From Candidatus Helarchaeota archaeon (GTDB lineage Archaea > Asgardarchaeota > Lokiarchaeia > Helarchaeales > RDOG01), in assembly GCA_019058315.1 (NCBI GenBank), contig JAHPZH010000004.1, positions 448,001-512,000 on the forward strand: DNA of 64,000 nucleotides, read 5' to 3'. The notes beneath the pieces were generated by a model. It did no database searches. It had not been told where the DNA came from and worked only from the letters and a program-made list of their open reading frames with translations. The position numbers were made by a program, and so were the translations under genes. This document shows positions 6,047 to 28,812 of the stretch, in pieces. Numbering within the stretch: position 1 is the stretch's first letter; each line of letters opens with the position of its first letter.

Positions 6047-7240
6047 CTATTCTGCTTTTCGTAATTTAAGTACAGATTTTAGTTCATCCTTTAATTCCGA
6101 TCTTATAGTCTTAACTTGTCCTAAATCATCCAAACTTCTGATAACTTCATATTTATTTCTTGCAATTGCTGATTTATTTTGCATTACCCCTTTCATATTA
6201 TCAACCCATTCTCTAATATTTTCAACTAACCCCTCTAAATTAATAAAACGTTCTTCAATAGAAGCACTTAAATTAATTATTATATTCAAAACACGCTCTA
6301 TTGAATTTCCCAAGTGTTTAGTTATATCCTCTTTTTCTTCTAATGGTGGTTTTAGACAATTTCGAATTTCAGAAATTACATTCTTATTTGCTCCCAAATA
6401 ATTATAAATGCTGTATGTAGACATTTCATATTTTAAATCCGTTTTTTCAAACAGTCCAACAATTTGCGTTGCTAATTTTTGAATAGAGTCTTGTATTTCC
6501 TTATTCTCTTTAATATCTGGGTCAACTTTATGTAACAATATTAAAAATTCTGGATTTTCTTTAAAATCAATAATTGTTTTTAAAATATCTTCTAAATATT
6601 TTATAGCGCTTGAATATTTCTCAGGTTCTTGAATATCTATTACGAAAATTAAAAGATCAATATTCGTAAAATATTTTTCAGCATTTTGGAGATATTCATT
6701 TCGAAATTGTATTTGACCACCCATATCCCAAAAAATTAGATCACTATCTAATTTATTGATTTTAACCCTTTCTACTCCCATTGTAGGTGGTAATTTACGA
6801 AGAATGTCAAGCTTAACATTATCTTGTAAAAAGTGTAAAAGGGTGGTTTTTCCTGCATTATCCAATCCGACAATTAAGATTTTCTTTAGATCATAAATCT
6901 CTTGAACTTTTTCGGATTCTTCTTCTTTTTCAATTCCTTCGGTCTCCTTTGGCTCAGGGGCTCTAAGCGCGTTTATTTTCTTTGCAATATAAACCCATTT
7001 ACTAAATCGATATTTTTTAATGCCCAAAGTCCTCAATTTTAAAATTTCATCATGTTTTACTTGTTTATCTGATAATTCTGCAATAGTTGAAATATCTAAA
7101 ACTTTTTGTAGATTTTGGAATGTTTTTTTACCAATTCCCTTAATGTGTGTTAAATCTAAATCCTTAAGTTCCTCTAAATTCGAAATTTCCTTGGGTATAT
7201 CTATTACTTCTTTTATATTATATGGTACTGATTTTATAAT
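6047..7240 (-). CDS. HhH (DUF4332-like) domain + Arf/Rag-like GTPase + C-terminal coiled coil; start extended to ATT 7240
   Basis: GLDNAGKT, PPT, WDMGGQ, HKVD, YSIY. The frame stays open upstream of TTG 7036 to ATT 7240 (GAGGTGA 5 nt upstream, in-frame TAA just before). The extension encodes DLTHIKGIGKKTFQNL..ISTIAEL, which aligns with the N-terminus of paralog 52465..53646. Confidence 0.8.
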   Translation of the reverse strand: MIKSVPYNIKEVIDIPKEISNLEELKDLDLTHIKGIGKKTFQNLQKVLDISTIAELSDKQVKHDEILKLRTLGIKKYRFSKWVYIAKKINALRAPEPKETEGIEKEEESEKVQEIYDLKKILIVGLDNAGKTTLLHFLQDNVKLDILRKLPPTMGVERVKINKLDSDLIFWDMGGQIQFRNEYLQNAEKYFTNIDLLIFVIDIQEPEKYSSAIKYLEDILKTIIDFKENPEFLILLHKVDPDIKENKEIQDSIQKLATQIVGLFEKTDLKYEMSTYSIYNYLGANKNVISEIRNCLKPPLEEKEDITKHLGNSIERVLNIIINLSASIEERFINLEGLVENIREWVDNMKGVMQNKSAIARNKYEVIRSLDDLGQVKTIRSELKDELKSVLKLRKAE

Positions 7241-7264
7241 TTAAATCACCTCTTATTCTTATTT

Positions 7265-7771
7265 TCAGCCGAATTTTAATAGCGAGCCCAATTCTTCAAA
7301 TACCTCTCTAATATTCCTATTTAATAAAGCAGAAGTCTCAAAAAATGCTTTAGCCCTTATTTTCTTTTGAAGTTCTTTGCCTTCTTCATATGAAACTTGT
7401 CGTTCCCCATCTAAATCTGCTTTATTTCCCACAAGAATGAATGGTATTTTTTTCTTCAAACTTTTTCTAATATCCTCTTCCCAATTCATAATATCCTCAT
7501 AAGTATAACTACGAGTAACATCATAAATTAAAATACAACCATCAGTTTGAGTATAGTATTTATTCCAAGACTCTCTTAAAAGAATTTGTCCTCCTAGATC
7601 CCAGATTCTTAATCCTATTTTATTTTTTTTCACATCAATTATTTTATAACCAACATTTACAACTAACGTAGGACGATACGAAACATCAACCAGCTCTCCC
7701 GTAATTGCTCTAAAACAGGTAGTTTTTCCTACTGCATCAGAACCAAGCAAGAGAATTTTATATTCTTTCAT
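7265..7771 (-). CDS. Small GTPase, Rab-like with Arf-like switch II
   Basis: GSDAVGKT, YRPT, WDLGGQ..LRESW..YY, NKAD, ETSAL; AGGTGA RBS upstream. Confidence 0.9.
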   Translation of the reverse strand: MKEYKILLLGSDAVGKTTCFRAITGELVDVSYRPTLVVNVGYKIIDVKKNKIGLRIWDLGGQILLRESWNKYYTQTDGCILIYDVTRSYTYEDIMNWEEDIRKSLKKKIPFILVGNKADLDGERQVSYEEGKELQKKIRAKAFFETSALLNRNIREVFEELGSLLKFG

Positions 7772-7783
7772 ATTTCATCACCT

Positions 7784-8305
7784 TTATTTTTGAATATGAT
7801 CTGTGATTTTCAAGATAAGATTTTCAATCTGAATAAGACGTTTATCAATAGTCTTGATAAAATTGTTAAAAATATTTAAAAAAACATCAAATCTATCCTC
7901 AAAAGATCCAATTTGGACTGGATATGGATTATTAAGCTCAGGATTTTCGTGGTTTATTTTAAAATAATCCTCAAATTCCTCTTTTGTTTTAATTATATCT
8001 ATCCTACTTCCCAAAATATTATAAAAAAATTCAATAAGTGGTAATTTGAAGACTCTACCATTCTCAGTTTTATTTAACAATAGTATTGCCATATCTTTAC
8101 TATTTTCACCACCAAAAAAAGAAGCTATATTGAAATCTTCAGAACTATAAACGGAAAACCTTGGAATGATCATATTTCCTAAAGTTTGACTTGAATATAT
8201 GCACATAATATCTTTTATGCTTACTTCTAATGTTTCCGGATATTGCCAGTCCACCAATATCCCTGTTCTATCATTCCATTTAATCCATATAATTCCTTTA
8301 GGAAT
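7784..8305 (-). CDS. Stand-alone uDENN/longin-like protein with C-terminal coiled coil; start extended to ATT 8305
   Basis: Extension to ATT 8305 (GGGGTG 5 nt upstream) gives (M)PKGIIWIKWNDRTGILVDWQYP, matching paralog 57357 MPKGVLWLKWNFKDGVVIDWKFP. Both share IPRF, NIASFFGG and TIDKRLIQIE. Confidence 0.7.
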   Translation of the reverse strand: MPKGIIWIKWNDRTGILVDWQYPETLEVSIKDIMCIYSSQTLGNMIIPRFSVYSSEDFNIASFFGGENSKDMAILLLNKTENGRVFKLPLIEFFYNILGSRIDIIKTKEEFEDYFKINHENPELNNPYPVQIGSFEDRFDVFLNIFNNFIKTIDKRLIQIENLILKITDHIQK

Positions 8306-8452
8306 AAGAACACCCCTTTTGAATCGATTTTATGATTTTTGTAGAATTTGTATACACCATTTTCTCTTTTTTAAGAGTGAAAGATAAATGAAAGTGATTG
8401 AATGAATTGATGAATTTAAAGAAAGGTGTATATCCTTTGAATTTGAAATCCT

Positions 8453-9352
8453 TTAAATCTGAACCATTGGAGTTGATAAAATCTCTGAGATAACTTTCCA
8501 ATATTTTTTTACATCCCAATCTTTTCCTTCCTTTATAATATTTGAAATTTCTTTATATATTTTCCGTATTTTTAAAGATTCAAAATAATTTATCTTTGGG
8601 GCAATTACTGTTAGCATGAAACGTCTATATCCTCCTCTTACATCCTCATCCAGGATTGAATCGAAATAAATGTATCCATCTCTATGGATATTTTCTATAT
8701 TTAACAAAATCCCCTGAGCTGTATTAAGATTTTCTTGCCCATAGATAGATGCAGTGGCAATGAATAACTGAGGACCAACACTTTGAATCGTAAGTTTAAT
8801 TTCCATCTCCATGGGATAAAATGACATCAATTGAGGACCAACTTTTTCATCCCATAAAAAATAAGATAATGAAACTTCATCTTTTTCTTCCTCTGTTATA
8901 GAAGGTGCCAAATCTATTTTCAATGAAGTAAGAGTTTTACTTATTTCTTTAATTATGGACTTAACTTTATTATTACGGTTAATTTTTCCCTTAATACTCG
9001 CAAGAAGGTCTTCTTCTTTAAAGGGTTTTGTTATGTAATCATCTACCCCAAGTATTTTTCCAAGACGAATATCATCTGGTGTGGAGCGAGCAGTTAGAAA
9101 TATAAAGGGTATGTTACTCCAAATTGGATTTTCAGCAACTTTCTTAAAAAAATCATAACCATTCATTTCAGGCATCATTATATCGCTAATTATAATGTCA
9201 GGAAGCTTTTGTAAACCGTTAAGAATCTTAATGGCATTATTTCCATTTTTAGCGGTAATAACTTTAAAATTATTAAATTCTAATGTCATTTTCAAGTTCG
9301 CCAATATTCCAATATTATCTTCAACAACCATTATCAGAGATTTCAACTTCAT
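8453..9352 (-). CDS. Response regulator: receiver domain fused to uDENN/longin-like domain
   Basis: REC motifs VVEDN, ISDIMMP, FLTA, KPF. C-terminal LSYFLWDEKVGPQL...P and DEDVRGG.RRFMLTVI resemble the N-terminal domain of 4966..6015. Confidence 0.8.
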   Translation of the reverse strand: MKLKSLIMVVEDNIGILANLKMTLEFNNFKVITAKNGNNAIKILNGLQKLPDIIISDIMMPEMNGYDFFKKVAENPIWSNIPFIFLTARSTPDDIRLGKILGVDDYITKPFKEEDLLASIKGKINRNNKVKSIIKEISKTLTSLKIDLAPSITEEEKDEVSLSYFLWDEKVGPQLMSFYPMEMEIKLTIQSVGPQLFIATASIYGQENLNTAQGILLNIENIHRDGYIYFDSILDEDVRGGYRRFMLTVIAPKINYFESLKIRKIYKEISNIIKEGKDWDVKKYWKVISEILSTPMVQI

Positions 9353-9384
9353 TCACCAGTTTTTCATTTTATTATTGATTTGAA

Positions 9385-12054
9385 CTAAGTTTTTATACTC
9401 TCACTTTGAATTTCTTTAAATCGAGGTAGAAATACGAAAAATGTCGAACCTTTACCGTACTCACTCTCTACAAATATATCTCCTTTATGTAATCGAGTTA
9501 AATCACGTGCGATAGGAAGTCCTAATCCTGTTCCAGGAATATCATTTACATCTTCAGATCTGAAAAATCGATCAAATAAAAATGGTAAATCTTTTTCATG
9601 TATACCTCTTCCAAAATCGGAAAATCGAACTAAAACTCCATCATTTTTATGTTTATTATATTCACCTTTATAATGGTCTATTACATCTATTTTTATTTTA
9701 GTTTTTTCATCAGAGTACTTTATAGCATTATCGATAATAATTCTAAAGACTTGTCCAATTCTTTTTGAATCTCCATATAATAATATCTGTTCATTTCCTT
9801 CAACTTCTATAGAAATTTCTTTTGCAGATCGATTAGGTTCCATTTGCATTAAAATATCATTAAGCACCTCTAAAGGTTGGTATTGGGACCATTCGATTTC
9901 TAATCTTTTTTCATCTATCCGAGATACTAGAAGAAGATCATTTACTAACTCCTCCAACACTTTAGCATTCTGAGACATCAGAGATAATAGTAATTCTTGC
10001 TGCCCTTTTGATATATTACTTTCATACTTTTTTAAATTATGGAGCGATTGAATGATTACTGTTATCGGTGTGCGTAATTCATGAGAAACGGTAGAAACAA
10101 ATTGTTTCCGCATATTATCAAAATTAACAAATGGTGAAACGTCACGAACTTCAATTATCGCCCCAAGAGAGGATTTATCGTGAAAACTATTGCCCGTAGA
10201 AACGAACTGTAGATGCAATCCTTCCTTTGGTTCAATAGTCACTATTTTAGGTTTTCCTACTAAAAATAATTCTTTTATCTTCTCATCAAAGGTATTCTGT
10301 GGTTCAAAATAATAATCAAATACATTAGGCATCTGCTGATTAAAAATTCTTTGATAATAATCTTTTAAGGTCCTGTTAACTAATGCTAAATTTCCGTCAC
10401 TATCCAGAACTAATATCCCGTCAGAAATTGTGTTGATAATATATTCAATACGTCTTTTCTCTTCAGCCAAACTCCAAGTCTTTTCTATAACTTGTTCGGC
10501 TAAAGAATCTCTAGCTTTAGCAAGCTCCCTAATTGCCTCCTTCCTTTCAGTAATATCTATAAACGATCCCATCATACAGATAGGCTTACCATTTTTATCC
10601 ATTACAGTACTGACGGAAAGTTGGACATCAAAGAATGAATTATCTTTTCTTTTAGCAATTAATTCACCGATCCAACTTCCTTCTTTGCGAAGTTTTTCTA
10701 TTATCATTTGACCGATGTCTTCATTTTGCCAAAATTCTAAAGCAGATTTTCCTAATAATTCTTCTTTATCATCATAACCCCACATTTTAAGAAAGGAATT
10801 ATTCACATATGTTAAAACACCACTAAGATCAGTAATGGCAATGGCATTAATAGACGATGCTATGGCGCTATCCTTTATTTTCAATTCCTTTTCTACCCGC
10901 TTTCTCTCAGTGATGTCCCTAGATATTTGAATTCCCTTTAATTTACCATCTATATCTATAAATGTCCTACCTTTTGTTCCAAACCAGATATAACTACCAT
11001 TTTTATGCTTGATTCGTAACTCCGCATTTGCATTACCCTTATTTAGACCATTTGCTAGACCTCGATATGCTTGATCAAGATCATTTGGATGAACAAAATC
11101 TAAGCTAACCTTTCCTATCAACTCCTCTTTTGAATAACCCATTAATTTTTTATGAATTTTTTCGTTAATATATTCGAATTCAAATTTGTCATTAATAATC
11201 ATAATTAGATCATTTGCGTTTTCTGTTATAAGTCGATATTTTTCTTCAGATTCTTCTAGTTTTTCCTTAGCTTTCATTTTTTCCGAAATATCATCATACA
11301 CAGCAACAATTTCTCCAGTAGATAATTTATATACGAAGTTTTCTCGCCAACCTTCAATTCTACAATCTTTGTAAAATGAAATAGGAAGGTGTTCTGGAGT
11401 CCCAGTTTTCCAGACTCTTTTGAAAACATCAAATAAACCAAATTCTTCTATACCAGGAAAAACATCCATTACAGATTTTCCTATTACTTGTTCTTTTTTT
11501 ATGTTTTCAATTCTCTCAGCAGCTCTATTAAAATCTTTAAAAATAAAATTCTCTCCATCATTAATAGATTCATAAACTGCAACCCCACTACTCATATTTT
11601 CTATAATATTTCGATATTTTTCCTCTGATTCTTTTAACTCTTTTTTTAAGCTTTGTTTCTTTAAAGCGTCGTTTATTTTATAGATTATTTCTTTCATATG
11701 TGTAGGTTTAACAAAATAACCATCAGCACCTTCATCAAGAGCATTTATAGCATTTTCTATTGTGGCATTACCAGTTACTATCATACAAACCATATCGGGA
11801 TGGATTTCTTTGAAATTTTTGAGAATTTCTATCCCATTCATGTCAGGAAGTTTTAAATCAATTATTGCTGCATTAAAATATTGATTCTTTACTTTTTCAA
11901 TAGCGATTCTTCCTGTATTAGCGATTCCGACTTCATAATCTATCTCCTCAAAAATAGAACAAATTGTTTCACATATCCCCTCATCATCATCCACAATTAG
12001 TATTTTTTTTGAGTTAATGCTAATCACTCCTTTATCTTTCAAAAGAAATCTCAT
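9385..12054 (-). CDS. Hybrid histidine kinase REC-(PAS)4-HisKA-HATPase
   Basis: N-terminal REC (VDDD, IDLKLP, KP), four PAS units, H-box VSHELRTPIT, N-box IDNAIKYS, G boxes DFGRGI and GTGLGL. True start may be a few codons downstream (12027 or 12018). Confidence 0.9.
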   Translation of the reverse strand: MRFLLKDKGVISINSKKILIVDDDEGICETICSIFEEIDYEVGIANTGRIAIEKVKNQYFNAAIIDLKLPDMNGIEILKNFKEIHPDMVCMIVTGNATIENAINALDEGADGYFVKPTHMKEIIYKINDALKKQSLKKELKESEEKYRNIIENMSSGVAVYESINDGENFIFKDFNRAAERIENIKKEQVIGKSVMDVFPGIEEFGLFDVFKRVWKTGTPEHLPISFYKDCRIEGWRENFVYKLSTGEIVAVYDDISEKMKAKEKLEESEEKYRLITENANDLIMIINDKFEFEYINEKIHKKLMGYSKEELIGKVSLDFVHPNDLDQAYRGLANGLNKGNANAELRIKHKNGSYIWFGTKGRTFIDIDGKLKGIQISRDITERKRVEKELKIKDSAIASSINAIAITDLSGVLTYVNNSFLKMWGYDDKEELLGKSALEFWQNEDIGQMIIEKLRKEGSWIGELIAKRKDNSFFDVQLSVSTVMDKNGKPICMMGSFIDITERKEAIRELAKARDSLAEQVIEKTWSLAEEKRRIEYIINTISDGILVLDSDGNLALVNRTLKDYYQRIFNQQMPNVFDYYFEPQNTFDEKIKELFLVGKPKIVTIEPKEGLHLQFVSTGNSFHDKSSLGAIIEVRDVSPFVNFDNMRKQFVSTVSHELRTPITVIIQSLHNLKKYESNISKGQQELLLSLMSQNAKVLEELVNDLLLVSRIDEKRLEIEWSQYQPLEVLNDILMQMEPNRSAKEISIEVEGNEQILLYGDSKRIGQVFRIIIDNAIKYSDEKTKIKIDVIDHYKGEYNKHKNDGVLVRFSDFGRGIHEKDLPFLFDRFFRSEDVNDIPGTGLGLPIARDLTRLHKGDIFVESEYGKGSTFFVFLPRFKEIQSESIKT

Positions 12055-12440
12055 TCTTTATCATTATTTTTTAGTTTCTTTATGGTTTGATTCATAAAAT
12101 TTATTATTTTTTCAATATCAAATGGTTTGTAAAGAATTCCATCGACTCCTAGATCTAGAGCTTCTTTGATAAGCTCTTCTACCGAATAGGCTGTCATCAT
12201 AACAATCTTAATAAATGGTCTTATATTTCTTACCCGCTTTAACGTCTCCACTCCGTCAATACCAGGCATCTTGATATCCAAAAAAGCCAGATCATAAAAC
12301 TTCTCACCAATCAACTCTATAGCTTGATAACCATCATTAGCAACATCTACATCAATATTGAAATCCTCAAAAATATCCTTCATAGTTTCACTTATTCCAA
12401 TATCGTCATCAACGATAAGTACATTAATTTTAACTGTCAT
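12051..12440 (-). CDS. Single-domain receiver (CheY-like) protein
   Basis: VDDD, LDIKMPG, MTAY, KPF; ATGA overlaps on both sides. Confidence 0.92.
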   Translation of the reverse strand: MTVKINVLIVDDDIGISETMKDIFEDFNIDVDVANDGYQAIELIGEKFYDLAFLDIKMPGIDGVETLKRVRNIRPFIKIVMMTAYSVEELIKEALDLGVDGILYKPFDIEKIINFMNQTIKKLKNNDKE

Positions 12441-13678
12441 TTCATATTCTCCTTTTTTCCAAATGGTATTCTAATAGTAATTGTTGTTCCTATATCTGAT
12501 TCACTTTCGACTCCTATCTCACCTTCATGTAATTCAATGATATTCTTGACTAAAGTTAATCCCAGTCCAATTCCATAGATTTTAGTACTAAAAAGTGGGT
12601 TGAATATTTTGTATAAGTTTATTTTCGGGATACCCATACCCGAGTCTTTGAATATTATTTCGACTAATGAATCATTTTTTTTGGTTTTTATCCCCAAATT
12701 TCCTCCGTTTGGCATAGCCTCAACAGAATTTTTAATAATATTTTGAAATACTTGATGAATTAAAAGTCTATCGATTTCTATTAACGGAAGACTATAATCC
12801 AAATTTAATTTTAATGCAATATTAGTAGGAAATTCGTAATCTTCTAAAAATTCTTTAATTAAGAGATTAATATCTCCCATTTCAAGATTTAATTTATTTA
12901 AGCTTGTTAAATTAAGTAAATGGGTTACTAATTTATTAGACCTTTCAACCTCCTTTTGCATCATTTTAAGATGTTTTCTAATTTTTTCATCCGAATTTTT
13001 AAGTCTTAAAGTTAGGTAATAGATGGAATTATTAATTACTCCAAGAGGATTTCTAATTTCATGCCCAATTTTCTCTGCAAGAATTCCTAAAGTTGCTAAT
13101 TTCTCCTTATATACATAGTCTTCAAAAAATGTTTCAAGTTTTTGGCTATGATATAATAATTCAAGGTGAGTTTCAACAAGCTCCTTGAACTTTCGAATTA
13201 ACTTTTCATATTTTTTAGTATAACTATTCTCTTTTAAATCAAGTACACAGATAGTGCCAAACACTTCTTCATCAGGCCAGAACAATGGAAAACCTAAATA
13301 GGAAATCATTCCTAGTTTAATGTCTGGATTATTATTCCAAACCTCATTTTTTAAAGCATTGGAAATTAATAACTTCTTTTTAGTCTTAATTACTGTCTCA
13401 CAATAAAGTCCCGCTAAAAGTTCCTTATTTCCTACCTTATATGGATTATTGGCTGTTTCGCTGGAGCAAAAAACTTTAATGTAAGGTTGTTCAACTTTCA
13501 TTATTAATGCTGCTGGGACTTGAATGATTTCTGCTAAAATATTTACAATTTCCTGCCATTTTTCAATTATTTTGTTATATATGATTATATTTTCTTTATT
13601 GAACAGCTTATTTGACAGTGTTTTGTTCCTATCTATAATAATTTCATTTTTATTAGTTATATCACTTTTAGCTTTTAT
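12437..13678 (-). CDS. GAF-HisKA-HATPase histidine kinase; start upstream of ATG 13501, probably non-AUG
   Basis: GAF core (YCETV...YLGFPLFWPDEEVFGTICVLD), H-box GHEIRNPL, G boxes. The frame is open for 59 codons upstream of 13501 and encodes the GAF N-terminal helix KWQEIVNILAEIIQVPAALI. It contains no ATG/GTG/TTG; ATA 13678 follows GGGGGGTTGA. Confidence 0.8.
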   Translation of the reverse strand: MKAKSDITNKNEIIIDRNKTLSNKLFNKENIIIYNKIIEKWQEIVNILAEIIQVPAALIMKVEQPYIKVFCSSETANNPYKVGNKELLAGLYCETVIKTKKKLLISNALKNEVWNNNPDIKLGMISYLGFPLFWPDEEVFGTICVLDLKENSYTKKYEKLIRKFKELVETHLELLYHSQKLETFFEDYVYKEKLATLGILAEKIGHEIRNPLGVINNSIYYLTLRLKNSDEKIRKHLKMMQKEVERSNKLVTHLLNLTSLNKLNLEMGDINLLIKEFLEDYEFPTNIALKLNLDYSLPLIEIDRLLIHQVFQNIIKNSVEAMPNGGNLGIKTKKNDSLVEIIFKDSGMGIPKINLYKIFNPLFSTKIYGIGLGLTLVKNIIELHEGEIGVESESDIGTTITIRIPFGKKENMK

Positions 13679-18663: not shown

Positions 18664-18945
18664 TTAATCTGTAAAAGTCTCTAAATCAAGTCCTAACAAA
18701 ACCTTGTCTTTATTAGAGAGATCACCTATGATTCTTCGTATTGGTGGAGGTAGTTCTTTAATTAATGCAGGTGTGGCGATGATTTTCTCATCCTCAGCTA
18801 ATTGTGGTCTTTCGAGAACATCAATTATCTCGATTTCATATTTATCCTTTAAATTTTCCTCACACATACGACGTAAGTTAATAATTGCTCTCTCAGATTG
18901 TGGCGTATGGCCTGTAATGTATAACCTCAACAAAGATTTATTCAT
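18664..18945 (-). CDS. kaiB: KaiB (KaiB3-like), copy 1
   Basis: LRLYITGHTPQS, IDVLERPQLAEDEKIIATPALIKELPPPIRRIIGDLS; GGAGGT RBS. Confidence 0.95.
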   Translation of the reverse strand: MNKSLLRLYITGHTPQSERAIINLRRMCEENLKDKYEIEIIDVLERPQLAEDEKIIATPALIKELPPPIRRIIGDLSNKDKVLLGLDLETFTD

Positions 18946-19026: not shown

Positions 19027-19113
19027 TTAATCCTCCATTTGTATTTTAATTCTATTTTCATGTTCTGTCTCAATTTTTTTTGAATGATTTGATTTTCTAA
19101 ATATATTATTCAT
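19027..19113 (-). CDS. Possible small ORF (28 aa, [28 protein letters not shown])
   Basis: The ATG overlaps the kaiA3 stop (ATGAATAA), GAGG lies upstream, and the stop is 1 nt before the next sORF. Confidence 0.3.
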   Translation of the reverse strand: MNNIFRKSNHSKKIETEHENRIKIQMED

Positions 19114-20011: not shown

Positions 20012-20454
20012 TCCAATGGTAATTTAACAATTGTAAACCAAAAATCTTCAATTGATTTTATTACTCTAATGAACTTTTCAAGTTCAACCGGTTTTGTCAC
20101 ATAGGCGTTAGCATGTAAATTATAACTTTTAAATACATCTTCTTCGGCTCTAGATGTCGTTAAAACAACTATAGGAATTCTCTTAAGGTTATCGTTACTT
20201 TTTATTTCTGCTAAAACCTCACGTCCATCCTTTTTAGGTAGGTTAAGATCAAGGAGAATCAAGTCTGGCCGAGGTGCATATAAATATTTACCTTTTTTGA
20301 GTAGAAAATCTAAGGCTTCAACACCATTATAGGCAACATGTAAATTATTAATCACTTTACCCTCTTTTAAGGCCTCTTGTGTTAATCTTACATCTCCTTG
20401 GTTATCTTCTACCAATAATATCTCAATATTTCTAACTGTATTTTTATCATTCAT
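20008..20454 (-). CDS. Rcp1-like single-domain response regulator
   Basis: [53 protein letters not shown]. Confidence 0.92.
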
Positions 20455-21905
20455 AATTTTTCATCCTTCAATAAAATTTCATTTTTAATTTCAATTCTTT
20501 CTGGAATTGTGAAATAAAACGTTGCTCCCTCCCCAAGTTGCGAATCCACCCAAATTTTCCCCTTATGACGTTCAACAATTTTCTTACATAGAGCTAGACC
20601 TATCCCAGTCCCTGGATATTCTTCTCTAGTGTGTAATCTCTGGAATATAACAAAAATACGTTCAAAATATTCTGGATCTATACCAATACCATTATCTTGA
20701 ACTGAAAAAATCCAATTCTCATTTTTATTCTCAGCTGAGATGAGAATTCGTGGAGGTGCTTTATTACGGAACTTAATAGCATTGCTAATAAGATTTTGAA
20801 ATAGTTGTTCCATCTGTGATCCATCAGCCATAACTTCAGGTAAAGAATTTCGGATAATTATGGCTGAATTCTCTTCGATTAATTTTGTCAAATTATTAAG
20901 TGCTCTATCCAAAATTTTATCGCAATCAACTCGATCAAAAGGTTTACCTCTTGTTCCCACTCTTGAGTAAGTTAATAAATCATTAATAAGTTGTTTCATT
21001 CTGTTTGTCCCATCAACAGCATAATAAATGAAATCATCTGCTTCGTCATCAAGTTTACCTTTATAACGCTTTGCTAGAAGCTGAACATAACTTGAAATCA
21101 TTCGTAAGGGTTCTTGTAAGTCGTGAGAAGCTATATATGCGAATTGTTCTAACTCTTTATTTGAAATTTCTAACCTATTTAAAATGATTTTTAATTTTTC
21201 CTCTGCTCTCTTACGATCGGATATATCTATTCCTACTCCTATCAGAAATATATCTTTATGTATTTCCTTATATTTTCCCATAAAGTAAAAAGGAGTTGAA
21301 ATACCGTTTTTTGATATAAAATTTATTTCAAAATTTAATCTCCCTTTATCAAAAACTTCTTTTAATTTATCATTTAGTATATTTTTCTCTAAAAAAAAAT
21401 CAAGGATGTTCATATTTGAAATTTCTTTTAAAGAATACCCAGAAATTTTTTCTAAGTTTTTATTCCACCTTATAAGTCTTCTATTTTTATCAATTATAAA
21501 AAAAATACCTGGTAAACTATTTATTATAAACTTAGATAGATTTTTTTCTCTTTGTAAATCTTTTTTCATATGGTTACGAATTCTTTCTTTAGAGTGTTCC
21601 AGTTCCAATGTTAGGGATAACATTCCTTTATTTGTTTCTGTCAGTTCCGTTTGTAAAGTCTGTATGGTATTTTCTGCTTCCTTAAGTTTTCTTTTTAATT
21701 CTTTGACGCTCATAGTTAATACTTCTTGAATGTTTCGAAGTTCCAGGGTACGTTGCTCGACTTGCTGTTCTAATTTCTCATTAGCTTTTTCCAATTCCAA
21801 TGTCAAAACCATAATTCCCTTATTAGTTTCCTCCAATTCTATTTGTAAGGAGCGAACTATATTTCTCTCTTCTTGCAATTGTTTTTGTAATTTATTATTG
21901 CTCAT
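20451..21905 (-). CDS. Histidine kinase with Cph1/bacteriophytochrome-type transmitter, one PAS and an N-terminal coiled coil with two ETNKG motifs
   Basis: H-box [33 protein letters not shown]; no chromophore-binding GAF/PHY; coupled to the Rcp1-like gene. Confidence 0.9.
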
Positions 21906-22141: not shown

Positions 22142-22963
22142 TTAATTTTCTCCATTCTTAATCTGTTCTTCATTAATAGGAAGTTTAATTGTGAAAATAG
22201 AACCCCTATTAAATCTACTTTTAACTTGTATTGTTCCATTATGTTGCTCAATAATATATTTCGCTATTGGCAGCCCCAACCCCATACCTTTAACTTTAGT
22301 GCTGAAAAGCGGCTCAAATATTCTTTTCAAATTCTCCTTTGGTATGCCCGCACCCGTATCTTTAATTTTTATTTCAATTATATTATTTTTAATAAGAGTC
22401 TTTATCTCTAAAACTCCTTCTTCTTGCATTGCTTGAATGGCATTAATAATGATATTTTGAAAAGCTTGTTGAATTTTTAAAGGATCTAAACTAATTAATG
22501 GTAAATTTTCACCAAGATTTAACAATACTTCAATATTACCATTTATGAGAGTATTGGCTATTGAATTTTTAATTAATAAGTTTATATTACCCTTTTCTAT
22601 ATTAGGTTCCTTTACTATTGCAAAAAAAAGTAGATCGGTGATTATTCTATTTGCCCGAATCACTTCTTTTTGAATAATATTAAGGTGTTTAATTATTTTC
22701 TGATCCACATCTTTAAGTCTCATATTTAAGTAATAAACTGAATTACTAATAACTCCAAGGGGATTCCGTAGCTCATGTCCAACACTTCCTGCAAGCTTTC
22801 CGATCACTGCTAATTTTTCCTTTGAAAACAATTCGTCCTTAGTGCGATCCAACTCCAATGTTAAAGCAACTATTCCACGGTTAGTCTCATCAAGTTCTTT
22901 CTGTAAATAATGAATATTTTCATTTGCCATTCTAAGCTTTTCCATTAATTCGCTATTGTTCAT
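22142..22963 (-). CDS. Sensor-less histidine kinase with N-terminal ETNRG coiled coil (stressosome-associated)
   Basis: ELDETNRGIVALTLELD, GHELRNPL, DTGAGI, GMGLGL; ATGA overlap with the PP2C gene. Confidence 0.88.
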   Translation of the reverse strand: MNNSELMEKLRMANENIHYLQKELDETNRGIVALTLELDRTKDELFSKEKLAVIGKLAGSVGHELRNPLGVISNSVYYLNMRLKDVDQKIIKHLNIIQKEVIRANRIITDLLFFAIVKEPNIEKGNINLLIKNSIANTLINGNIEVLLNLGENLPLISLDPLKIQQAFQNIIINAIQAMQEEGVLEIKTLIKNNIIEIKIKDTGAGIPKENLKRIFEPLFSTKVKGMGLGLPIAKYIIEQHNGTIQVKSRFNRGSIFTIKLPINEEQIKNGEN

Positions 22964-23964
22964 ATTTTTCCCCTCACAACGACCACTGTTGCATCATCAT
23001 CATCTTTTGCTAAAGAACGTAATAAAACTTGAGCAATTTTCGTAGCTGATTCATTTTGAAGATAATAAAAATTATCCCAATTCCAATGTGATATTATACC
23101 ATCTGAATGAAGAATCATGATATAACTAGGATCCCAATGTTTCTCATTGATTACTGGATTTGGGCTTTTAATCCCAAGTATTCCACGTCTTATAATAAAG
23201 TCTATTTTTTCTGAAGAACCAATAACCCTCACTGTAATGTTTCCAATGCTAGCAAGAGTGATTTTTTGCTTTGTCCAATCAAAACGTGCTAGAGCCATTA
23301 CAACGCCACGTGTAGCACTACATGTACGTCCAGTGCCACGAAAAATTTGGTCTAATGGCTGGTCATAATGTTTCATTATATAATTCCATGCAGTTTTAGC
23401 AGCGCGATGTGCAAATTGTCCATGTCCTAGACCATCAATTACTCCTACTAATGCGCTGTGATTCCATCGTTTAATTATAAATGAGTCTCCATTAAGACTC
23501 ATCCCTAATCTTGGACGTGATGCACCATCTATTAAAAAAGGACAGGAACCCGATATTCGCTTATTTTTTATATAATATTTACAAATAATATGCGTATATC
23601 CCGGCTTTGAACTAATTTCAAGTTCGTCCATTATTCTATTAACAATTCCTAAACCATAACCCAAGCTTTTCTTTGTTGAATACCCATTAGTAATTGATTT
23701 TTCAATATTATTAAATCCTGGTCCACTATCCACGGATTCAATTTGAACACCTTGCTTTTTACCATTATTAAGGGAGCTAATTATCAATTCTCCTTTATTA
23801 GCATGTTTTATCAAATTAGTAGCAAGTTCATTAATAACTAGTTCAATATTTTCAGATGTTAATGTATCAAATCCTATAGCAACGCCTAATTGTTTTACTA
23901 TTTGGCGTGCGAGTAAAATATCGCTTCGATTTTTTATTATTATAATTTCTTTGATTTTTTTCAC
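22960..23964 (-). CDS. rsbX: RsbT-like HATPase fused to RsbX-like PP2C/SpoIIE phosphatase
   Basis: N-terminal ELATNLIKHA, DSGPG, GYST..SLGYGLG; C-terminal NGDS, IDGLGHG, HSDGI, DDATVVV. Confidence 0.85.
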   Translation of the reverse strand: MKKIKEIIIIKNRSDILLARQIVKQLGVAIGFDTLTSENIELVINELATNLIKHANKGELIISSLNNGKKQGVQIESVDSGPGFNNIEKSITNGYSTKKSLGYGLGIVNRIMDELEISSKPGYTHIICKYYIKNKRISGSCPFLIDGASRPRLGMSLNGDSFIIKRWNHSALVGVIDGLGHGQFAHRAAKTAWNYIMKHYDQPLDQIFRGTGRTCSATRGVVMALARFDWTKQKITLASIGNITVRVIGSSEKIDFIIRRGILGIKSPNPVINEKHWDPSYIMILHSDGIISHWNWDNFYYLQNESATKIAQVLLRSLAKDDDDATVVVVRGKI

Positions 23965-23971
23965 GCTACTT

Positions 23972-24379
23972 TTATTTAAGCCATTTAATAATAATCACTT
24001 GTGTTCCTTTACCTACCTTGGAATCAATCTCCATTTCATCCATGAGTCGTTTAGATCCAGGTAATCCCATTCCTAGTCCATTACCAGTACTATAACCTTC
24101 TTGCATTGCTAATTCAATATCTTGGATGCCCGGACCATTATCCTTAAAAATTAACTTGAGCCCAACCTTATTTTCAGAATTAACTTTCATCCATATCATT
24201 TTTCCCGAACCAGCAAATTTATAAATGTTCCTAGCTAGCTCAGAAACTGCTGTAATTATTCTAGTAACGTCTGTCATACCAAATCCCATCGCATTAGCCG
24301 CATTACGTGCCATTCTCCTTGCATTTATTATATCCGTTTCAGAACTAATAGTAACTATATTTTGAGTTGTTAGGGTCAT
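23972..24379 (-). CDS. rsbT: Stressosome Ser/Thr kinase RsbT
   Basis: ITAVSELARNI, DNGPGI.DIELAMQEGYST..GLGMGLPGSKRLMDE. Confidence 0.95.
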   Translation of the reverse strand: MTLTTQNIVTISSETDIINARRMARNAANAMGFGMTDVTRIITAVSELARNIYKFAGSGKMIWMKVNSENKVGLKLIFKDNGPGIQDIELAMQEGYSTGNGLGMGLPGSKRLMDEMEIDSKVGKGTQVIIIKWLK

Positions 24380-24753
24380 AATTGATGATCACTGCCTATT
24401 AAGTCAATAGCACTATCAACATCAAGCGATGTGATTGCATTACCTAATGTTAGTCCCAATTGTGTTGTTGTAATGGCAACACTAGGACGCATTCCTGCTA
24501 TAACTGTCACACCGCCCATCAAGGCTACCATTTGAGCTGTTTCCGCTATTGTACGGGCAAAAAATGAATCTACTGTCTCAACCATTGAAATATCCATGAC
24601 TAATCCCTTCACCGTATATTTCTCCATCGCATCCAACACTTTCTCCTGTAATTCAGAAACGGAACTATCATCCGGATCGGAGGGCACCGTAACTATCAAT
24701 ATTTCACGAATCTTATTTACTGAAATGCTCTCAAACTTCATTCTATACATCAC
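24376..24753 (-). CDS. rsbS: Stressosome STAS protein RsbS (likely start ATG 24741)
   Basis: STAS with phosphoacceptor Ser in VETVDSFFAR, GMRPSVAIT; located between rsbR and rsbT. Confidence 0.93.
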   Translation of the reverse strand: MMYRMKFESISVNKIREILIVTVPSDPDDSSVSELQEKVLDAMEKYTVKGLVMDISMVETVDSFFARTIAETAQMVALMGGVTVIAGMRPSVAITTTQLGLTLGNAITSLDVDSAIDLIGSDHQL

Positions 24754-24770: not shown

Positions 24771-26042
24771 TCATTTTTTACTATTTTTGTTAATTATTTT
24801 CAATTCCAGTACTTCTAAAGCAAGTTCTAATCCTTCAGCTAAAGATTTACATGTACGGACACCCGAGAGATCAATACCAAGATGAATTAATGTTTGCGCA
24901 ATAGCAGGATTTATTCCAGTTAAAACTACTTTTGAGCCTAGTAAACGAACTGCATTTATTGTATCAACGAGATGTTGGGCAATTCCAGTATCAATAGCTG
25001 GGACACCCGTAATATCTAATAAAGCGACTTTAGAGTGTGTATCTACGATTCTTTGTAGTAAATGTTCCATAATTTGCTGTGTGCGTTCGCTATCTAACAT
25101 GCCTATTATTGGAGTAATTACAACGCCTTCCCAGATTTGTATGACTGGAGTAGAAGATTCAAGTATATCTTCAGCTCTCTTCTCTAATGATTTTCGAAGG
25201 GTGATATCTGAAGCCACTGACGCAAGTGCGGTGATATTTGCGCCCCCAGTAGTAGATGTTGACATGGAGAAATATCTTTTTTGTCCATCTTCCCCAATAA
25301 ATTCAACTTCATAGCCAAGTTCGGGGGTTTTTGTTTTAAAAACTTTTTTGAATATCTCTAATAGTCGATTAGACTCATTAGGAGATACTAAATCAATTAA
25401 TGATGTCTCGACAACATCTTGATATTTGAAACCTAATCGATCGCTTAATGCTTTGTTACTATAAAGAATTTGGCCATTTGTATTGTGTAATATTAAAGCA
25501 TCTTGTGTGTTTTTTACTAAAGTTTGATATTTTTCCACATTTAACATTAGCGTTGAAATATCAATAAAATGTCCAACAGTCTGACCCAGAGATTCTAAAT
25601 TTTTAACATCCTCATTGGTATATCCACCTGCTTTATTAGCAACAGATATCGTGCCAATAGGATTTCCATGATGTCGTAAAGGAATACCTAAAAAAGAATT
25701 GATAGGTGGATGCCCTTCTGGAATACCTCCACTTTCTGGATCTGTAGATGGGGAATTAGAGATGTAACTCTTATTAGTTCTTATAGGAACCAACCAAAGA
25801 TGTTTGCCAACTAGAGCTGATGGTGGGAATACAACTTCTTTTATTGGCATTTTACATGCTTCCCAACCCATCCCATTTATCCCAAGGGTATGATAAGAAC
25901 CTTCCGACATAATGCCAGTTTGACCATACTCACTTTTTGTTAGTTCTACCGCATAATCTATAAGGATTTGTCCTTGTTCATAAATATCTTTTTTACTTCT
26001 CATTTTTGCTATTAAAATATCATTTTTTTCATTATTACTCAT
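24771..26042 (-). CDS. rsbR: RsbR-family sensor: GAF-PAS-STAS
   Basis: GAF (SNSPSTDP..GGIPEGHPPI.SFLGIPL), PAS, then STPVIQIWEG..PIIG.LDSER and DITGVP.IDT.IAQHL. Confidence 0.9.
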   Translation of the reverse strand: MSNNEKNDILIAKMRSKKDIYEQGQILIDYAVELTKSEYGQTGIMSEGSYHTLGINGMGWEACKMPIKEVVFPPSALVGKHLWLVPIRTNKSYISNSPSTDPESGGIPEGHPPINSFLGIPLRHHGNPIGTISVANKAGGYTNEDVKNLESLGQTVGHFIDISTLMLNVEKYQTLVKNTQDALILHNTNGQILYSNKALSDRLGFKYQDVVETSLIDLVSPNESNRLLEIFKKVFKTKTPELGYEVEFIGEDGQKRYFSMSTSTTGGANITALASVASDITLRKSLEKRAEDILESSTPVIQIWEGVVITPIIGMLDSERTQQIMEHLLQRIVDTHSKVALLDITGVPAIDTGIAQHLVDTINAVRLLGSKVVLTGINPAIAQTLIHLGIDLSGVRTCKSLAEGLELALEVLELKIINKNSKK

Positions 26043-26108: not shown

Positions 26109-28202
26109 CTACGCTATATTATTACTAATTATTTTCATATCTAGCATACTTAATGAAAGTCGAATTCCTTCCATTAATGACTTACATGTAAAAATTCCAG
26201 AGAGATCAATACCTAAATAAACTAAAGTCTGAGCAATAGAGGGTTTTATGCCAGTCAAAACTACGTGTGTACCTAATAAACGAACAGCATTAAATGTATC
26301 GATTAAATGTTGGGCAATTGCAGTGTCTACAGTAGGGACACCTGTAATATCCACCAAAGCGACCTTTGAATGTGTTTCTACAACACGTTCTAATAATTGA
26401 TCCATAATTTGTTGAGCTCTCTCGCTATCCAATGTGCCTATAATCGGTATTACGACAATGCCTTCCCATACTTGAACCACAGGTGTGGAAGCTTCGAATA
26501 TAGCTGCTGTTCTCAGTTCTATTTCCTTAATGCGAGACATATCCCTGAGAGACTCAACTATTCCGATTATTTCGCCATCAATATTCCGATATGGTTGTGC
26601 AGTTATAATACAAGGGATTATAGTACCATCTTTGCGTATATGTTCAACGGGTAGTTCTAATCGATCTTTACCACCTAATATCTGAACTAATGTACATTCA
26701 GGAGTATGACATAAAGGGCTTTTTATTGCATCAAAGCAATTTATTCTTAATGATTCATCTATGCTTAATCCTGATAGTTCTGTAAATGTTTTATTTATTC
26801 GAAGCACATTGAAATTCTTGTCAATTATACGTATCCCGTCTGCTGCGGTATTAAAAACAGCATTCGTTGTATCAATTTCTCTTTTTATATTTTCATTTTT
26901 TTCGGTGAGAATATCCCTCATAAACTTCATGTTAAGGACTAATTCATTAAGAATCTGTTCTAACAATCCAATTTCCCCAGAATCGGTAATCTTCAGTTTC
27001 TGATCAAGATCTCCACCAGCAACAGATGCTATCTGCTTAATAATAATTGATAATCGATTCTGAACGGATTCAGACATATCTAACTCTTTAAGTGGTTTTT
27101 CTTCTTCTTTAAATGCACTAAATGGTTGATTTGAAACATATTTCAAGGGATCTTCACCTGTAAAAGGATGAATCCCACTGAGACTAGGTTTTTTTTCTAT
27201 TTCAAACCCAAGCGATTTTGCAAGCTCTCGATTTGCATCTATCTCAAAGACGTTTTCAACAATGTCTGAATAATTAACTTTTACTGATAATTGGGACCAT
27301 CTTTGCATCTGTGAAAGCATCCATATTCCATATTCGACCCATGGGAAAGGAGCAAAATCAATTCTATCAGGAATAACATGATTTTTCCCCTTACCATCTG
27401 GAAAATCTCCTGATAAAGCTTGTGCTACTGGTATATAATTTTCTTGATTTATATAATATGGAGCAGAGATTTCCTTAGCGATTTCCTTCCTTTCCTCAAC
27501 TTTCGCATTGTGCAATATCCATTCCGCCTCCAGAACGCTTTTCAGCATTATTTTGTATGTATTGGGATACTTTTCTATAAACTTCTGTTTAATTGCAAAG
27601 GCGCAGCAAGGATGACCTTGCCATATCTCCTTAGAAAGCGTATGAATGAATCCTATTTTTTGATAGACTGCTAATTGATTATATGGTTCTGCGGTAAAAT
27701 AACCATCTAATTTGCCCTTTTTTAGATAATATGGCATCAAAGATGGGGAAACTTCTTCCATTTTTACGTCTTTGAGAGGATTTAAACCATTTGCTGCTAA
27801 AAAATAACATAATAAGTAGTAATGCATAGAAAAGCGATATGGTATTCCAAAAGTGAATCCTTTCATATCCTTTACAGATTTTATTCCCAAATGTCTATTC
27901 GAGAGAGTTAAAGCTTGACCATTTATATTTTGCATAGTTACTAGTTTAATTTCTGATTTTTTACCATCTAATCCCAAATGGCAAGCAAGGGGCATTGGCG
28001 AAAGCATATGTGCCGCATCGATATAATCATAAACTAATAATTCCTTGACACCACTCCAACCAGGGGGTTTGATCATTTCCACATTAAGTCCGTTTTTTTC
28101 AAAAATACCATGACTATGAGCATAAATGAGTGGAGCAGAACAAGTAATTGGTATAAATCCAATTTTTAGGTCTGGTTTTTCAATTTTATAATTAATCAAC
28201 AT
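26109..28202 (-). CDS. rsbR: RsbR-family sensor: CynA/NrtA/CmpA-type solute-binding domain + HAMP-like linker + PAS + STAS
   Basis: EKPDLKIGFIPITC, AHMLSPMP, SMHYYLL, EPYNQ, WQGHPCC, DRIDF.PFPW with no signal peptide; GDLDQKL...GEIG.L linker; PAS; STAS GTLDSERA / VPTVDT. Confidence 0.88.
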   Translation of the reverse strand: MLINYKIEKPDLKIGFIPITCSAPLIYAHSHGIFEKNGLNVEMIKPPGWSGVKELLVYDYIDAAHMLSPMPLACHLGLDGKKSEIKLVTMQNINGQALTLSNRHLGIKSVKDMKGFTFGIPYRFSMHYYLLCYFLAANGLNPLKDVKMEEVSPSLMPYYLKKGKLDGYFTAEPYNQLAVYQKIGFIHTLSKEIWQGHPCCAFAIKQKFIEKYPNTYKIMLKSVLEAEWILHNAKVEERKEIAKEISAPYYINQENYIPVAQALSGDFPDGKGKNHVIPDRIDFAPFPWVEYGIWMLSQMQRWSQLSVKVNYSDIVENVFEIDANRELAKSLGFEIEKKPSLSGIHPFTGEDPLKYVSNQPFSAFKEEEKPLKELDMSESVQNRLSIIIKQIASVAGGDLDQKLKITDSGEIGLLEQILNELVLNMKFMRDILTEKNENIKREIDTTNAVFNTAADGIRIIDKNFNVLRINKTFTELSGLSIDESLRINCFDAIKSPLCHTPECTLVQILGGKDRLELPVEHIRKDGTIIPCIITAQPYRNIDGEIIGIVESLRDMSRIKEIELRTAAIFEASTPVVQVWEGIVVIPIIGTLDSERAQQIMDQLLERVVETHSKVALVDITGVPTVDTAIAQHLIDTFNAVRLLGTHVVLTGIKPSIAQTLVYLGIDLSGIFTCKSLMEGIRLSLSMLDMKIISNNIA

Positions 28203-28203
28203 T

Positions 28204-28530
28204 CTATTTTTCTCCCTCGATCATTTCTATTTCTGTATTTAAAGTCTGTAAATTACTGATGGGACTTGTACCAGATTTTTTTAATTCACTATATACTTTA
28301 TTTGGCAAGATCGAAATATGTTGAACTAGTTTTTCTATTAAAAAACCCAATAGTAGACAAGCCGGAATTCCAACAAATAGCGCAATTAAATGAGCAAAAA
28401 GCCAATCAAATAAAAAATTTGAACAAAAACCAATTCTAAATGCTGTTACTGTGAAAGTTACTATTTGAGTCATAAAAAATGCAATTAAAATTCTTCCTAA
28501 TACTTTAGCATATTTTTGTGGAATTTTCAT
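28204..28530 (-). CDS. Small 2-TM membrane protein (DUF2798-like)
   Basis: Two hydrophobic helices around IGF..NFLFDWL.A..IA...GIP; AGGAGG RBS. Confidence 0.65.
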   Translation of the reverse strand: MKIPQKYAKVLGRILIAFFMTQIVTFTVTAFRIGFCSNFLFDWLFAHLIALFVGIPACLLLGFLIEKLVQHISILPNKVYSELKKSGTSPISNLQTLNTEIEMIEGEK

Positions 28531-28620
28531 ACTTTTTCCTCCTTTTCTGAAAGTTTATTTTTGCTTATAATCTCGAATTTAATTTTGTAAATCTCCTAAT
28601 TTTTTTTGATTAGATAGAAA

Positions 28621-28812
28621 TTACCCCTCAATGTAAGTCCTTGAGTTTAAAACTTGAATTTTTTGTTTAATTGAAGCAATTATTGAAGGTTTTTTATTAT
28701 TTGAGTTCAAATGATTATTATTAAGAAGTGGACCAAATACGATACCACAACCCTTACAAACTAACATTTTACGGTAGAAAAACAATTTTTTATCATCACA
28801 GCAATCTTTCAT
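28621..28812 (-). CDS. Zn-ribbon microprotein (TFIIB-type ribbon-like)
   Basis: CC.....(x14)VCKGCG.V; GGTGA RBS 6 nt upstream; first gene of the minus-strand run. Confidence 0.6.
   Translation of the reverse strand: MKDCCDDKKLFFYRKMLVCKGCGIVFGPLLNNNHLNSNNKKPSIIASIKQKIQVLNSRTYIEG

Follow-up and report, generated by a model that had tools for sequence, protein, structure and literature searches.

Stressosome, KaiA3-type clock, receiver-longin and small GTPase genes in one gene run of an Asgard archaeon

The gene run and its setting

We analysed a 64,000-nucleotide stretch of contig JAHPZH010000004.1 from a Candidatus Helarchaeota archaeon, referred to below as the window, and in particular a run of 23 genes, all on the minus strand, that extends from position 28812 down to position 6047. 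A first, sequence-only reading had described about 22 genes here, leading from a stressosome through a two-component relay and a KaiABC oscillator to a REC-uDENN protein and small GTPases, and had taken the gene order to follow the flow of a signal. The open reading frame (ORF) listing and Pfam searches of the window proteins, on which most domain assignments below depend, agree with that gene list almost gene by gene. We propose that the run is probably a composite, specific to this lineage, in which four signalling cassettes lie head to tail within an island of kinase and GTPase genes, with cross-talk between neighbours. Every neighbouring pair of modules recurs in other genomes, and the full chain is found only in this one.

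The genes carry the working names g01 to g23 in their order from 28812 to 6047, and other genomes are denoted by G-numbers.

28621..28812, minus: g01, 63-aa Cys-rich ORF (CC...CxxC), a possible zinc ribbon from reading the sequence; no Pfam family, membership of the run unproven
28204..28530, minus: g02, DUF2798 small membrane protein (Pfam PF11391, 41.8 bits)
26109..28202, minus: g03, RsbR-type sensor, NMT1_2 (solute-binding fold)-HAMP-PAS-STAS (Pfam NMT1_2 1e-66, STAS 2e-15)
24771..26042, minus: g04, RsbR-type sensor, GAF-PAS-STAS (Pfam)
24376..24753, minus: g05, RsbS-like STAS-only protein, 125 aa (Pfam STAS 4e-12)
23972..24379, minus: g06, RsbT-like serine kinase, 135 aa (Pfam HATPase_c / HATPase_c_2)
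22960..23964, minus: g07, fusion of an RsbT-like kinase domain and a PP2C phosphatase, with a putative RsbX/RsbU role (Pfam HATPase_c_2 6e-13)
22142..22963, minus: g08, histidine kinase without a sensor domain, overlapping the preceding gene by 4 bp (Pfam HisKA and HATPase_c)
20451..21905, minus: g09, PAS histidine kinase (Pfam)
20008..20454, minus: g10, single-domain receiver (Pfam REC)
19106..20011, minus: g11, KaiA3-type protein, receiver plus KaiA-like helical domain (Pfam REC; fold; synteny)
18664..18945, minus: g12, KaiB, copy 1 (Pfam KaiB 6e-30)
17130..18653, minus: g13, KaiC, copy 1, two domains (Pfam KaiC 2.5e-114)
16775..17080, minus: g14, KaiB, copy 2 (Pfam KaiB 3e-29)
15258..16778, minus: g15, KaiC, copy 2 (Pfam KaiC 4e-121)
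13668..15146, minus: g16, REC-PAS-histidine kinase, member of the Kai cassette (Pfam)
12437..13501, minus: g17, GAF histidine kinase (Pfam)
12051..12440, minus: g18, single-domain receiver (Pfam REC 3e-29)
9385..12054, minus: g19, REC-PAS-PAS histidine kinase (Pfam)
8453..9352, minus: g20, receiver plus longin domain with WD...GP motif (Pfam REC; structure model)
7784..8305, minus: g21, Asgard-specific protein of about 173 aa, probable ATT start (homologue N-termini; no family)
7265..7771, minus: g22, Rab-like small GTPase (Pfam Ras 2.6e-38)
6047..7036, minus: g23, RagA/Gtr1-like GTPase, extended at both termini (Pfam Gtr1_RagA 78.8 bits)

Seven of the gene-to-gene junctions have a 4-bp overlap, and six gaps measure 111–236 bp. 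The genome of origin is 5.79 Mb in 12 contigs and 94% complete, with a GC content of about 29%, and the contig that holds the window is 604,681 bp long. Relatives of the window proteins come from metagenome-assembled genomes (MAGs) labelled Promethearchaeota, Hermodarchaeota or Helarchaeota, and on the strength of those names we take the host to be an Asgard archaeon.

A chimeric join, which would have undone the first reading, is unlikely and was rejected because an independent Logan contig spans positions 6000–25900 unbroken, with zero differences and an even depth of 17.5, and because GC at third codon positions is uniformly low (0.16–0.34) across all 23 genes. The source run of that Logan contig is a sediment metagenome, probably the run behind the assembly itself. 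A search of sequencing runs for the stretch returned a single sediment-metagenome DNA run, again probably the source, and listed no RNA run; Rfam and tRNA scans of the window gave no matches.

The stressosome and Kai cassettes

The two RsbR-type genes each encode a C-terminal STAS domain behind a variable N-terminal sensor, and genes for RsbS and RsbT follow directly and overlap each other by 4 bp, as expected of a stressosome. The Pfam domains agree with the labels rsbR, rsbR, rsbS and rsbT given earlier, and the putative phosphatase of the gene labelled rsbT-X scores 25.1 bits for SpoIIE/PP2C, barely above the threshold of 25. The RsbR-RsbS-RsbT order recurs in six other Asgard loci, where the position of RsbS is conserved; the RsbT-like kinase is 47–61% identical to its orthologues in seven other Asgard genomes, and the STAS part of the GAF-PAS-STAS protein is 43–54% identical to RsbR of the other Asgard cassettes. 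In four genomes (G276, G240, G253 and G184) the cassette consists of RsbR, RsbS, RsbT, RsbT-PP2C, a kinase and a receiver, so that in these too the RsbT-PP2C fusion lies after RsbT.

Modules of the rsbRSTX kind, placed beside two-component genes, are known from a range of bacteria "and even some archaeal species" (PMC9237108). The present genes resemble the Vibrio vulnificus type in having RsbR with a variable sensor, RsbS, RsbT, a PP2C phosphatase and then two-component genes, with no sigma factor. They differ from it in the presence of two RsbR paralogues, one with an NMT1_2-HAMP-PAS and the other with a GAF-PAS sensor, in the fusion of the phosphatase to a second RsbT-like domain, which is conserved in the Asgard cassettes, and in the Kai cassette downstream. 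We describe this part as a putative minimal stressosome (two RsbR, RsbS, RsbT and the RsbT-like/PP2C fusion) whose output would be a histidine kinase, as in Vibrio-type loci.

One further locus bears on the NMT1_2 sensor. In G229 (locus L181, contig C220, 887-4469, minus strand) the genes encode, in order, a receiver-longin protein, a receiver and a histidine kinase whose NMT1_2 sensor is 77% identical to the NMT1_2 domain of the RsbR protein at 26109..28202. Because so close a copy heads a kinase there, the same sensor appears to serve either a kinase or a stressosome.

Downstream of the stressosome genes lies a Kai cassette with tandem kaiB-kaiC pairs. The two KaiB copies score 103 and 101 bits against Pfam KaiB, and the two KaiC copies are 68% identical to each other. 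Copy 1 of KaiC matches PDB entry 8zn5 at E 1e-218 and cyanobacterial KaiC at 1e-177; aligned to 8zn5 over residues 8–500 it retains the phosphosite segment (...HISTITD...) and the CII Walker A motif. Its CI Walker A motif reads GSSGSAKT, with Ala for the usual Gly, where the closest solved KaiC has GTPGTGKT.

The receiver of the g11 protein has the acidic pocket and the Asp, Thr and Lys residues of a true receiver, and its C-terminal domain is modelled as helical (predicted local distance difference test, pLDDT, 81). In an exhaustive structural comparison against 48,161 chains the first three ranks were all KaiA (Z 10.7, 10.7 and 10.0), with 90–97 residues aligned at a root-mean-square deviation of 2.4–2.7, notwithstanding that such Z values can be reached by chance for helical folds. 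Foldseek E-values for the same domain were weak (0.1–0.5), and sequence and profile searches of the PDB gave no KaiA. The protein is not a canonical KaiA, as it lacks a Pfam KaiA match at E <= 0.01 and its receiver is not a pseudo-receiver. It has instead the features of the KaiA3 type, namely a true receiver, a KaiA-like four-helix C-terminal domain and a gene directly upstream of kaiB-kaiC. The relatives retrieved by sequence, at 50–57% identity, are bacterial, and in one Chloroflexi and one Neomarinimicrobiota genome they too are encoded directly upstream of kaiB-kaiC. With the likeness to KaiA drawn from the predicted fold together with synteny, g11 fits a KaiA3-type protein, and in this respect the kaiA3 label of the first reading holds.

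The relationships of the cassette lie with bacteria. KaiC is 74% identical to the Chloroflexi and 70% to the Neomarinimicrobiota protein, as against 43–50% to other Asgard KaiC, and the Neomarinimicrobiota locus is colinear, with a g10-type receiver (68%), KaiA3 (48%), KaiB (66%), KaiC (70%) and a g16-type REC-PAS-kinase (42%); this last figure, for g16 and the Neomarinimicrobiota gene after kaiC, holds over the full length. The Kai cassette is of bacterial type, and by these comparisons it would be a clear case of a whole clock cassette moved from a bacterium into an Asgard archaeon. It would have arrived with its own g09, g10 and g16, its composition would since have become fully adapted, and kaiBC would have been duplicated.

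The list of Koebler et al. 2024 (PMC11372060) for the KaiA3 type is confined to cyanobacteria and five bacterial genera, and among the sequences and literature searched the present kaiABC cluster is the first of the KaiA3 type from an archaeon. It shares with the KaiA3-KaiB3-KaiC3 system of Synechocystis a gene for a receiver plus KaiA-like C-terminal domain directly upstream of kaiB and kaiC, and a two-domain KaiC with a Ser/Thr phosphosite segment; with the Chloroflexi and Neomarinimicrobiota homologues it shares a colinear cassette with KaiB and KaiC 66–74% identical. It differs from KaiA3-KaiB3-KaiC3 in its archaeal host, the tandem kaiBC duplication, the Ala in the CI Walker A motif of KaiC copy 1, and a C-terminal domain of g11 whose sequence retrieves no KaiA from the PDB.

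The receiver-longin regulator and the GTPases

The third cassette is an Asgard-typical pair, the kinase g19 and the regulator g20, whose output domain would be a longin of the folliculin/NPRL2/C9orf72 kind. Of 400 genomes of the phylum, the set from which all phylum-wide counts here are taken, 167 encode relatives of the longin domain of g20, mostly in ORFs of about 300 aa and often in several copies. The model of this domain (36-member alignment; pLDDT 83.6) has the topology bb-a-bbb-aa of a longin fold. Foldseek matches it to NPRL2/NPRL3, Npr2/3, FLCN/FNIP2, Lst4, DENND longins and a Lokiarchaeota longin at E-values from 4e-5 to 7e-3, with a probability of 1.00 and E-values of 4e-5 to 7e-4 for GATOR1, SEA, FLCN and the Loki longin, and VIA-align gives Z scores of 14.0 for the Loki longin 8yqg, 12.6 for Lst4, 11.4 for the FLCN complex and 11.4 for C9orf72-SMCR8, the lowest among the longin targets being 9.6.

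Residues W36, G41 and P42 are invariant in all 36 sequences of the g20 family (consensus WDDxxGP), R108 (D..RGG), a possible arginine finger, is nearly so, and the WD/GP spacing equals that of C9orf72 (W33-D34...G38-P39, positions per PMC12290439). GP and WD motifs mark longins of GTPase-activating protein (GAP) type and one class of Asgard longins (PMC12290439), with which g20 shares both the GP motif and a WD motif at the C9orf72 spacing. Membership of the Pfam families Folliculin and NPR2 was considered and rejected, Folliculin matching two of the 36 members, at E 0.039, and NPR2 none. Nor is the architecture that of a DENN protein, as g20 ends about 165 residues past the receiver and its model comprises one longin domain. 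Because Folliculin and NPR2 are unmatched and the DENN core is absent, we take the output of g20 to be a GP-motif longin and not a DENN module. What stands of the proposed REC-uDENN protein is thus the fusion of a receiver to a longin-type domain; its assignment to DENN falls with the absence of the cDENN and dDENN parts.

In about 24 of 29 loci the gene immediately before the receiver-longin gene encodes a g19-type kinase, with a core that is 44–58% identical in most of them. It is likely, from this recurrent pairing, that g19 is the cognate kinase of the receiver-longin protein. A Rag-like GTPase of 182–188 aa follows the receiver-longin gene directly in four MAGs and at locus L102. These short Rag-like neighbours (180–198 aa overall) lack a Roadblock domain. 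A predicted complex of the g20 longin, the G domain of g23, GTP and Mg scored 0.48, and a control 0.52.

The remaining genes of the run make up the fourth cassette, that is, g21 with the Rab-like GTPase g22, and the RagA-like GTPase g23. Homologues of g21 are 171–177 aa long and start with M.KG..WLKW, and the sequence ahead of the TTG start of the ORF as listed (7784-8257) encodes that N-terminus in frame, with no ATG, GTG or TTG preceding it. Translation of g21 thus probably begins at an ATT at 8303-8305, 5 nt after GGGGTG. The description of g21 as uDENN-like is borne out at the level of a motif and not at that of a family. The protein and the longin family have in common only a first-strand W-[DN]-x3-G-x-[LV]-x3-Y-P motif, the one match when the two families were compared (hhalign E 0.005, probability 7.5%). 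Against the longin alignment, neither g21 nor the neighbours of 158 aa and 180 aa gave a usable hhalign match, and an Atlas search with g21 returned values all below 0.9, in which NPR2 on 19% of one cluster is a lead only. A second g21-type copy (171 aa, 43–45% identical) overlaps a Rab-like GTPase gene by 4 bp at 57357-58375 on the plus strand; since the pair recurs there, we regard g21 plus Rab-like GTPase as a repeated unit.

That both proteins are GTPases, as labelled in the first reading, agrees with Pfam (Ras and Gtr1_RagA); the HhH N-terminus named there for the last of them is putative. The best solved relative of g22 is the Thorarchaeota Rab 7ezb (E 1.4e-27); for g23, the Lokiarchaeota RagA-like GTPase 8yl2 comes first (E 2.8e-22). 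The 78.8 bits of g23 for Gtr1_RagA compare with a cut-off of 22, and Arf scores nearly equally (75.7 bits). A Rag-type HKxD G4 motif is present in g23 and its short relatives, and LHKxDPD is invariant in the alignment. The full length of g23 is conserved in G128. About 115 residues follow its G domain; 8yl2 has a Roadblock-like C-terminal domain, but the match to it spans only residues 47–221.

Several other observations concern the GTPase and kinase genes around the run. A convergent GTPase operon at 90-6015 encodes Ras-like and RagA-like GTPases, and also, at 4966-6015 on the plus strand, a Rab-like GTPase with an N-terminal domain of about 170 aa that carries the FD...GP and D..RGG motifs of the receiver-longin family (hhalign E 0.028); this product is probably a longin-Rab fusion, judging by those motifs. 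A family-less ORF of 128 aa at 6015-6401 (plus) covers, in antisense, the conserved C-terminal portion of the RagA-like gene and is probably no gene. At 48543-50187 (plus) the gene for a PAS histidine kinase runs 14 bp into the start of the next gene, for a Ras-like GTPase, so that kinase and small GTPase appear to be translationally coupled, with no receiver between them. Two giant histidine kinases of 2488 aa (MEDS and about 12 PAS domains) and 2057 aa (about nine PAS domains and GAF) are encoded at 34651-48368 (plus). The run is flanked by genes for REC-DUF835-HTH (29645-30766, plus; HTH, helix-turn-helix), REC-DUF7347 (33872-34537, plus) and GAF-DUF835 (50197-51891, minus), with GTPase genes of the Ras-like and RagA-like kinds after the last of them (51906-53646).

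Linkage between the cassettes and its interpretation

The only other genome of the same family, G128, is 94% complete. A kinase of the g19 type, the receiver-longin gene, Rag-like GTPases and the convergent operon of GTPases are arranged there as here, on a contig that stops just upstream of the kinase, and both KaiB and RsbT are absent from the genome. KaiB is likewise absent from all five genomes of the same order that were searched, strong KaiB matches occurring in about 11 of the 400 genomes of the phylum, and RsbT is present in nine other genomes. As the closest relative has the kinase, receiver-longin and GTPase part without KaiB or RsbT, we regard the full chain as a lineage-specific composite.

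Genes of the g09, g10 and g16 types link the first two cassettes. In G184 the Rsb genes are followed by g09-like (60%), g10-like (69%) and g16-like genes, with no Kai genes, while g09- and g10-like genes lie upstream of KaiB-KaiC in G275 and G150, and a g16-like gene after KaiC in G275. Rsb genes are found in none of the other Kai loci retrieved, and in G276, which has both, Kai and Rsb genes lie on separate contigs.

Kai genes and receiver-longin genes are neighbours in three other Lokiarchaeial genera, all of one family, which supply four loci with three gene orders. In G271 the order is HTH, Rag-like GTPase, PAS-histidine kinase, receiver-longin, KaiB and one-domain KaiC, and the first of two loci in G163 has the same order. 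In G162 it is HTH, Rag-like GTPase, KaiB, KaiC, PAS, histidine kinase and two receiver-longin genes, and in the second locus of G163 it is Rag-like GTPase, two receiver-longin genes, KaiB and a KaiC remnant. At that last locus (L157, G163:C344, 1764-1907) KaiC is reduced to 48 residues beside KaiB and the two receiver-longin genes, and the Kai module seems to be decaying. Receiver-longin genes thus lie within 5 kb of KaiB at four of the 11 other strong KaiB loci, against about 0.1 expected by chance, a rough figure that assumes 1–6 receiver-longin copies per genome of 4–5 Mb and in which related genomes are not independent. The first reading had made its case depend on a conserved linkage of the Kai and GTPase parts. 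That linkage is found in G162, G163 (at both loci) and G271, whereas the complete rsb-kai-longin-GTPase chain has no counterpart there.

For the composite reading, which we favour, a plausible sequence of events can be set out. RsbT, once freed from the stressosome, would act on g08 or g09; His-Asp transfer would then reach g10 and the receiver of KaiA3, the phosphorylation of KaiC would thereby be set, and g16 would read it out. Separately or downstream of this, g19 would phosphorylate the receiver-longin protein, whose longin domain may alter the nucleotide state of the neighbouring Rag-like (or Rab-like) GTPase. We would expect cross-talk between adjacent cassettes, but not a linear pathway that every signal must follow, nor transcription of the run as one unit.

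Several points weigh against this reading. The window holds at least nine small GTPase genes, about eight times the mean for a genome with roughly 110 GTPase loci, and many histidine kinases besides, and since it is so packed with both, adjacency within the island is weak evidence of a functional relation. For the same reason the earlier proposal that gene order follows signal flow is not compelling. The six gaps of 111–236 bp allow separate transcripts. Here 5.9 kb and four genes separate the Kai genes from the receiver-longin gene, and because these Kai genes are of another clade than those beside receiver-longin genes in the other genera, their closeness may be unrelated to the closeness seen there. 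Nor can the genomes with Kai and receiver-longin genes together be counted as independent, as they all belong to one family.

It is possible, though we consider it unlikely, that the cassettes are independent of one another and were gathered in a hot spot for signalling genes, by insertion of transferred DNA and local duplication, with no meaningful cross-talk. The whole window is after all an island of kinases and GTPases, including giant multi-PAS kinases, at least nine GTPases and duplicated g21-Rab pairs, and every cassette is found alone elsewhere. Two-component pairs are, moreover, usually insulated from one another. Against such independence, genes of the g09, g10 and g16 types are tied to Rsb in some genomes and to Kai in others, and the Kai genes keep the vicinity of receiver-longin genes in three other genera, at a frequency well above the rough chance figure given above, even if these kin are not independent.

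A more ambitious view is that KaiB-KaiC phospho-switches of Lokiarchaeia are wired through a dedicated kinase and a receiver-longin protein to Rag-like GTPases, and that in the present lineage this wiring was upgraded by a bacterial KaiA3, with possible free-running oscillation, and by a stressosome input with a solute-binding sensor. We regard this as quite doubtful.

The remaining view, of one linear 23-gene pathway on one or two transcripts in which a stressosome that takes in a stress or nutrient signal entrains a KaiA3BC oscillator that acts through a phosphorelay on the receiver-longin protein and the GTPases, seems to us very unlikely: it would account for the single strand and the seven 4-bp overlaps, for the recurrence of each module junction in some other genome, for the g09, g10 and g16 gene types common to Rsb and Kai loci, and for the fold that KaiA-like domains share with the RsbT-binding N-terminal domain of RsbU (PMC11372060), which might permit direct contact, but the complete chain is seen in this genome alone, Kai and Rsb are absent from the nearest relative and from genomes of the same order, the Kai loci retrieved elsewhere lack Rsb and G276 keeps the two apart, six sizeable gaps interrupt the run, and the Kai cassette would be a bacterial import.

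The first reading knew of no description of this combination, and that remains so for the chain as a whole. Its parts are in print: Rsb modules with two-component output, KaiA3B3C3, and NPRL2-like longins fused to two-component domains in Asgard archaea, the last reported in a preprint in which two-component systems were also surmised to feed eukaryote-like regulators there (Liu et al. 2020, 10.1101/2020.10.19.343400). The pairing with a kinase, the Rag-like neighbour and the link to Kai are not described in that preprint or in PMC12290439, and the latter does not mention the receiver fusion. A literature search, which did not cover the paper of Makarova et al. 2017 on KaiC hubs in archaea, found no paper linking KaiB or KaiC to Asgard GTPases or longins.

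With the eukaryotic longin complexes that act on Rag/Arf GTPases (GATOR1 NPRL2-NPRL3, FLCN-FNIP and C9orf72-SMCR8) the Asgard regulator shares the longin fold (Z 9.6–11.4) and the GP/WD motif, and the Rag-like GTPase with HKxD is here encoded next door. It differs from these GAP complexes in that the predicted protein has no DENN core, partner complex or Pfam Folliculin/NPR2 match, and in that its input would be His-Asp phosphorylation, as the receiver fusion suggests. In Myxococcus, MglA, MglB and RomR under Frz likewise combine a Ras-like GTPase, a Roadblock/longin-fold regulator, a receiver protein and phosphorelay input (PMC6785124, PMC9481161). In the present run a single protein joins receiver and longin, the GTPases resemble Rag and Rab and not MglA, and chemosensory genes are absent.

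Asgard genomes encode about a hundred small GTPases and many longin and Roadblock proteins. Their genes rarely share operons (PMC10933270), for which reason the partners of most of these proteins are still to be named. Three conserved neighbourhoods offer concrete, testable pairings: kinase with receiver-longin protein, receiver-longin protein with Rag-like GTPase, and KaiB-KaiC beside both. The position of KaiBC next to the kinase, the receiver-longin gene and/or a Rag-like GTPase gene is to us the most interesting result. If the longin proves to be a phosphorylation-controlled GAP or guanine nucleotide exchange factor for the Rag-like GTPase, the nutrient logic of folliculin/GATOR1 and Rag would have been driven by prokaryotic His-Asp signalling before eukaryotes. 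If the Kai-longin-Rag wiring is real as well, the nucleotide state of a eukaryote-type GTPase would be under the control of a prokaryotic timer or energy-state ATPase that acts through a folliculin/NPRL2-like longin.

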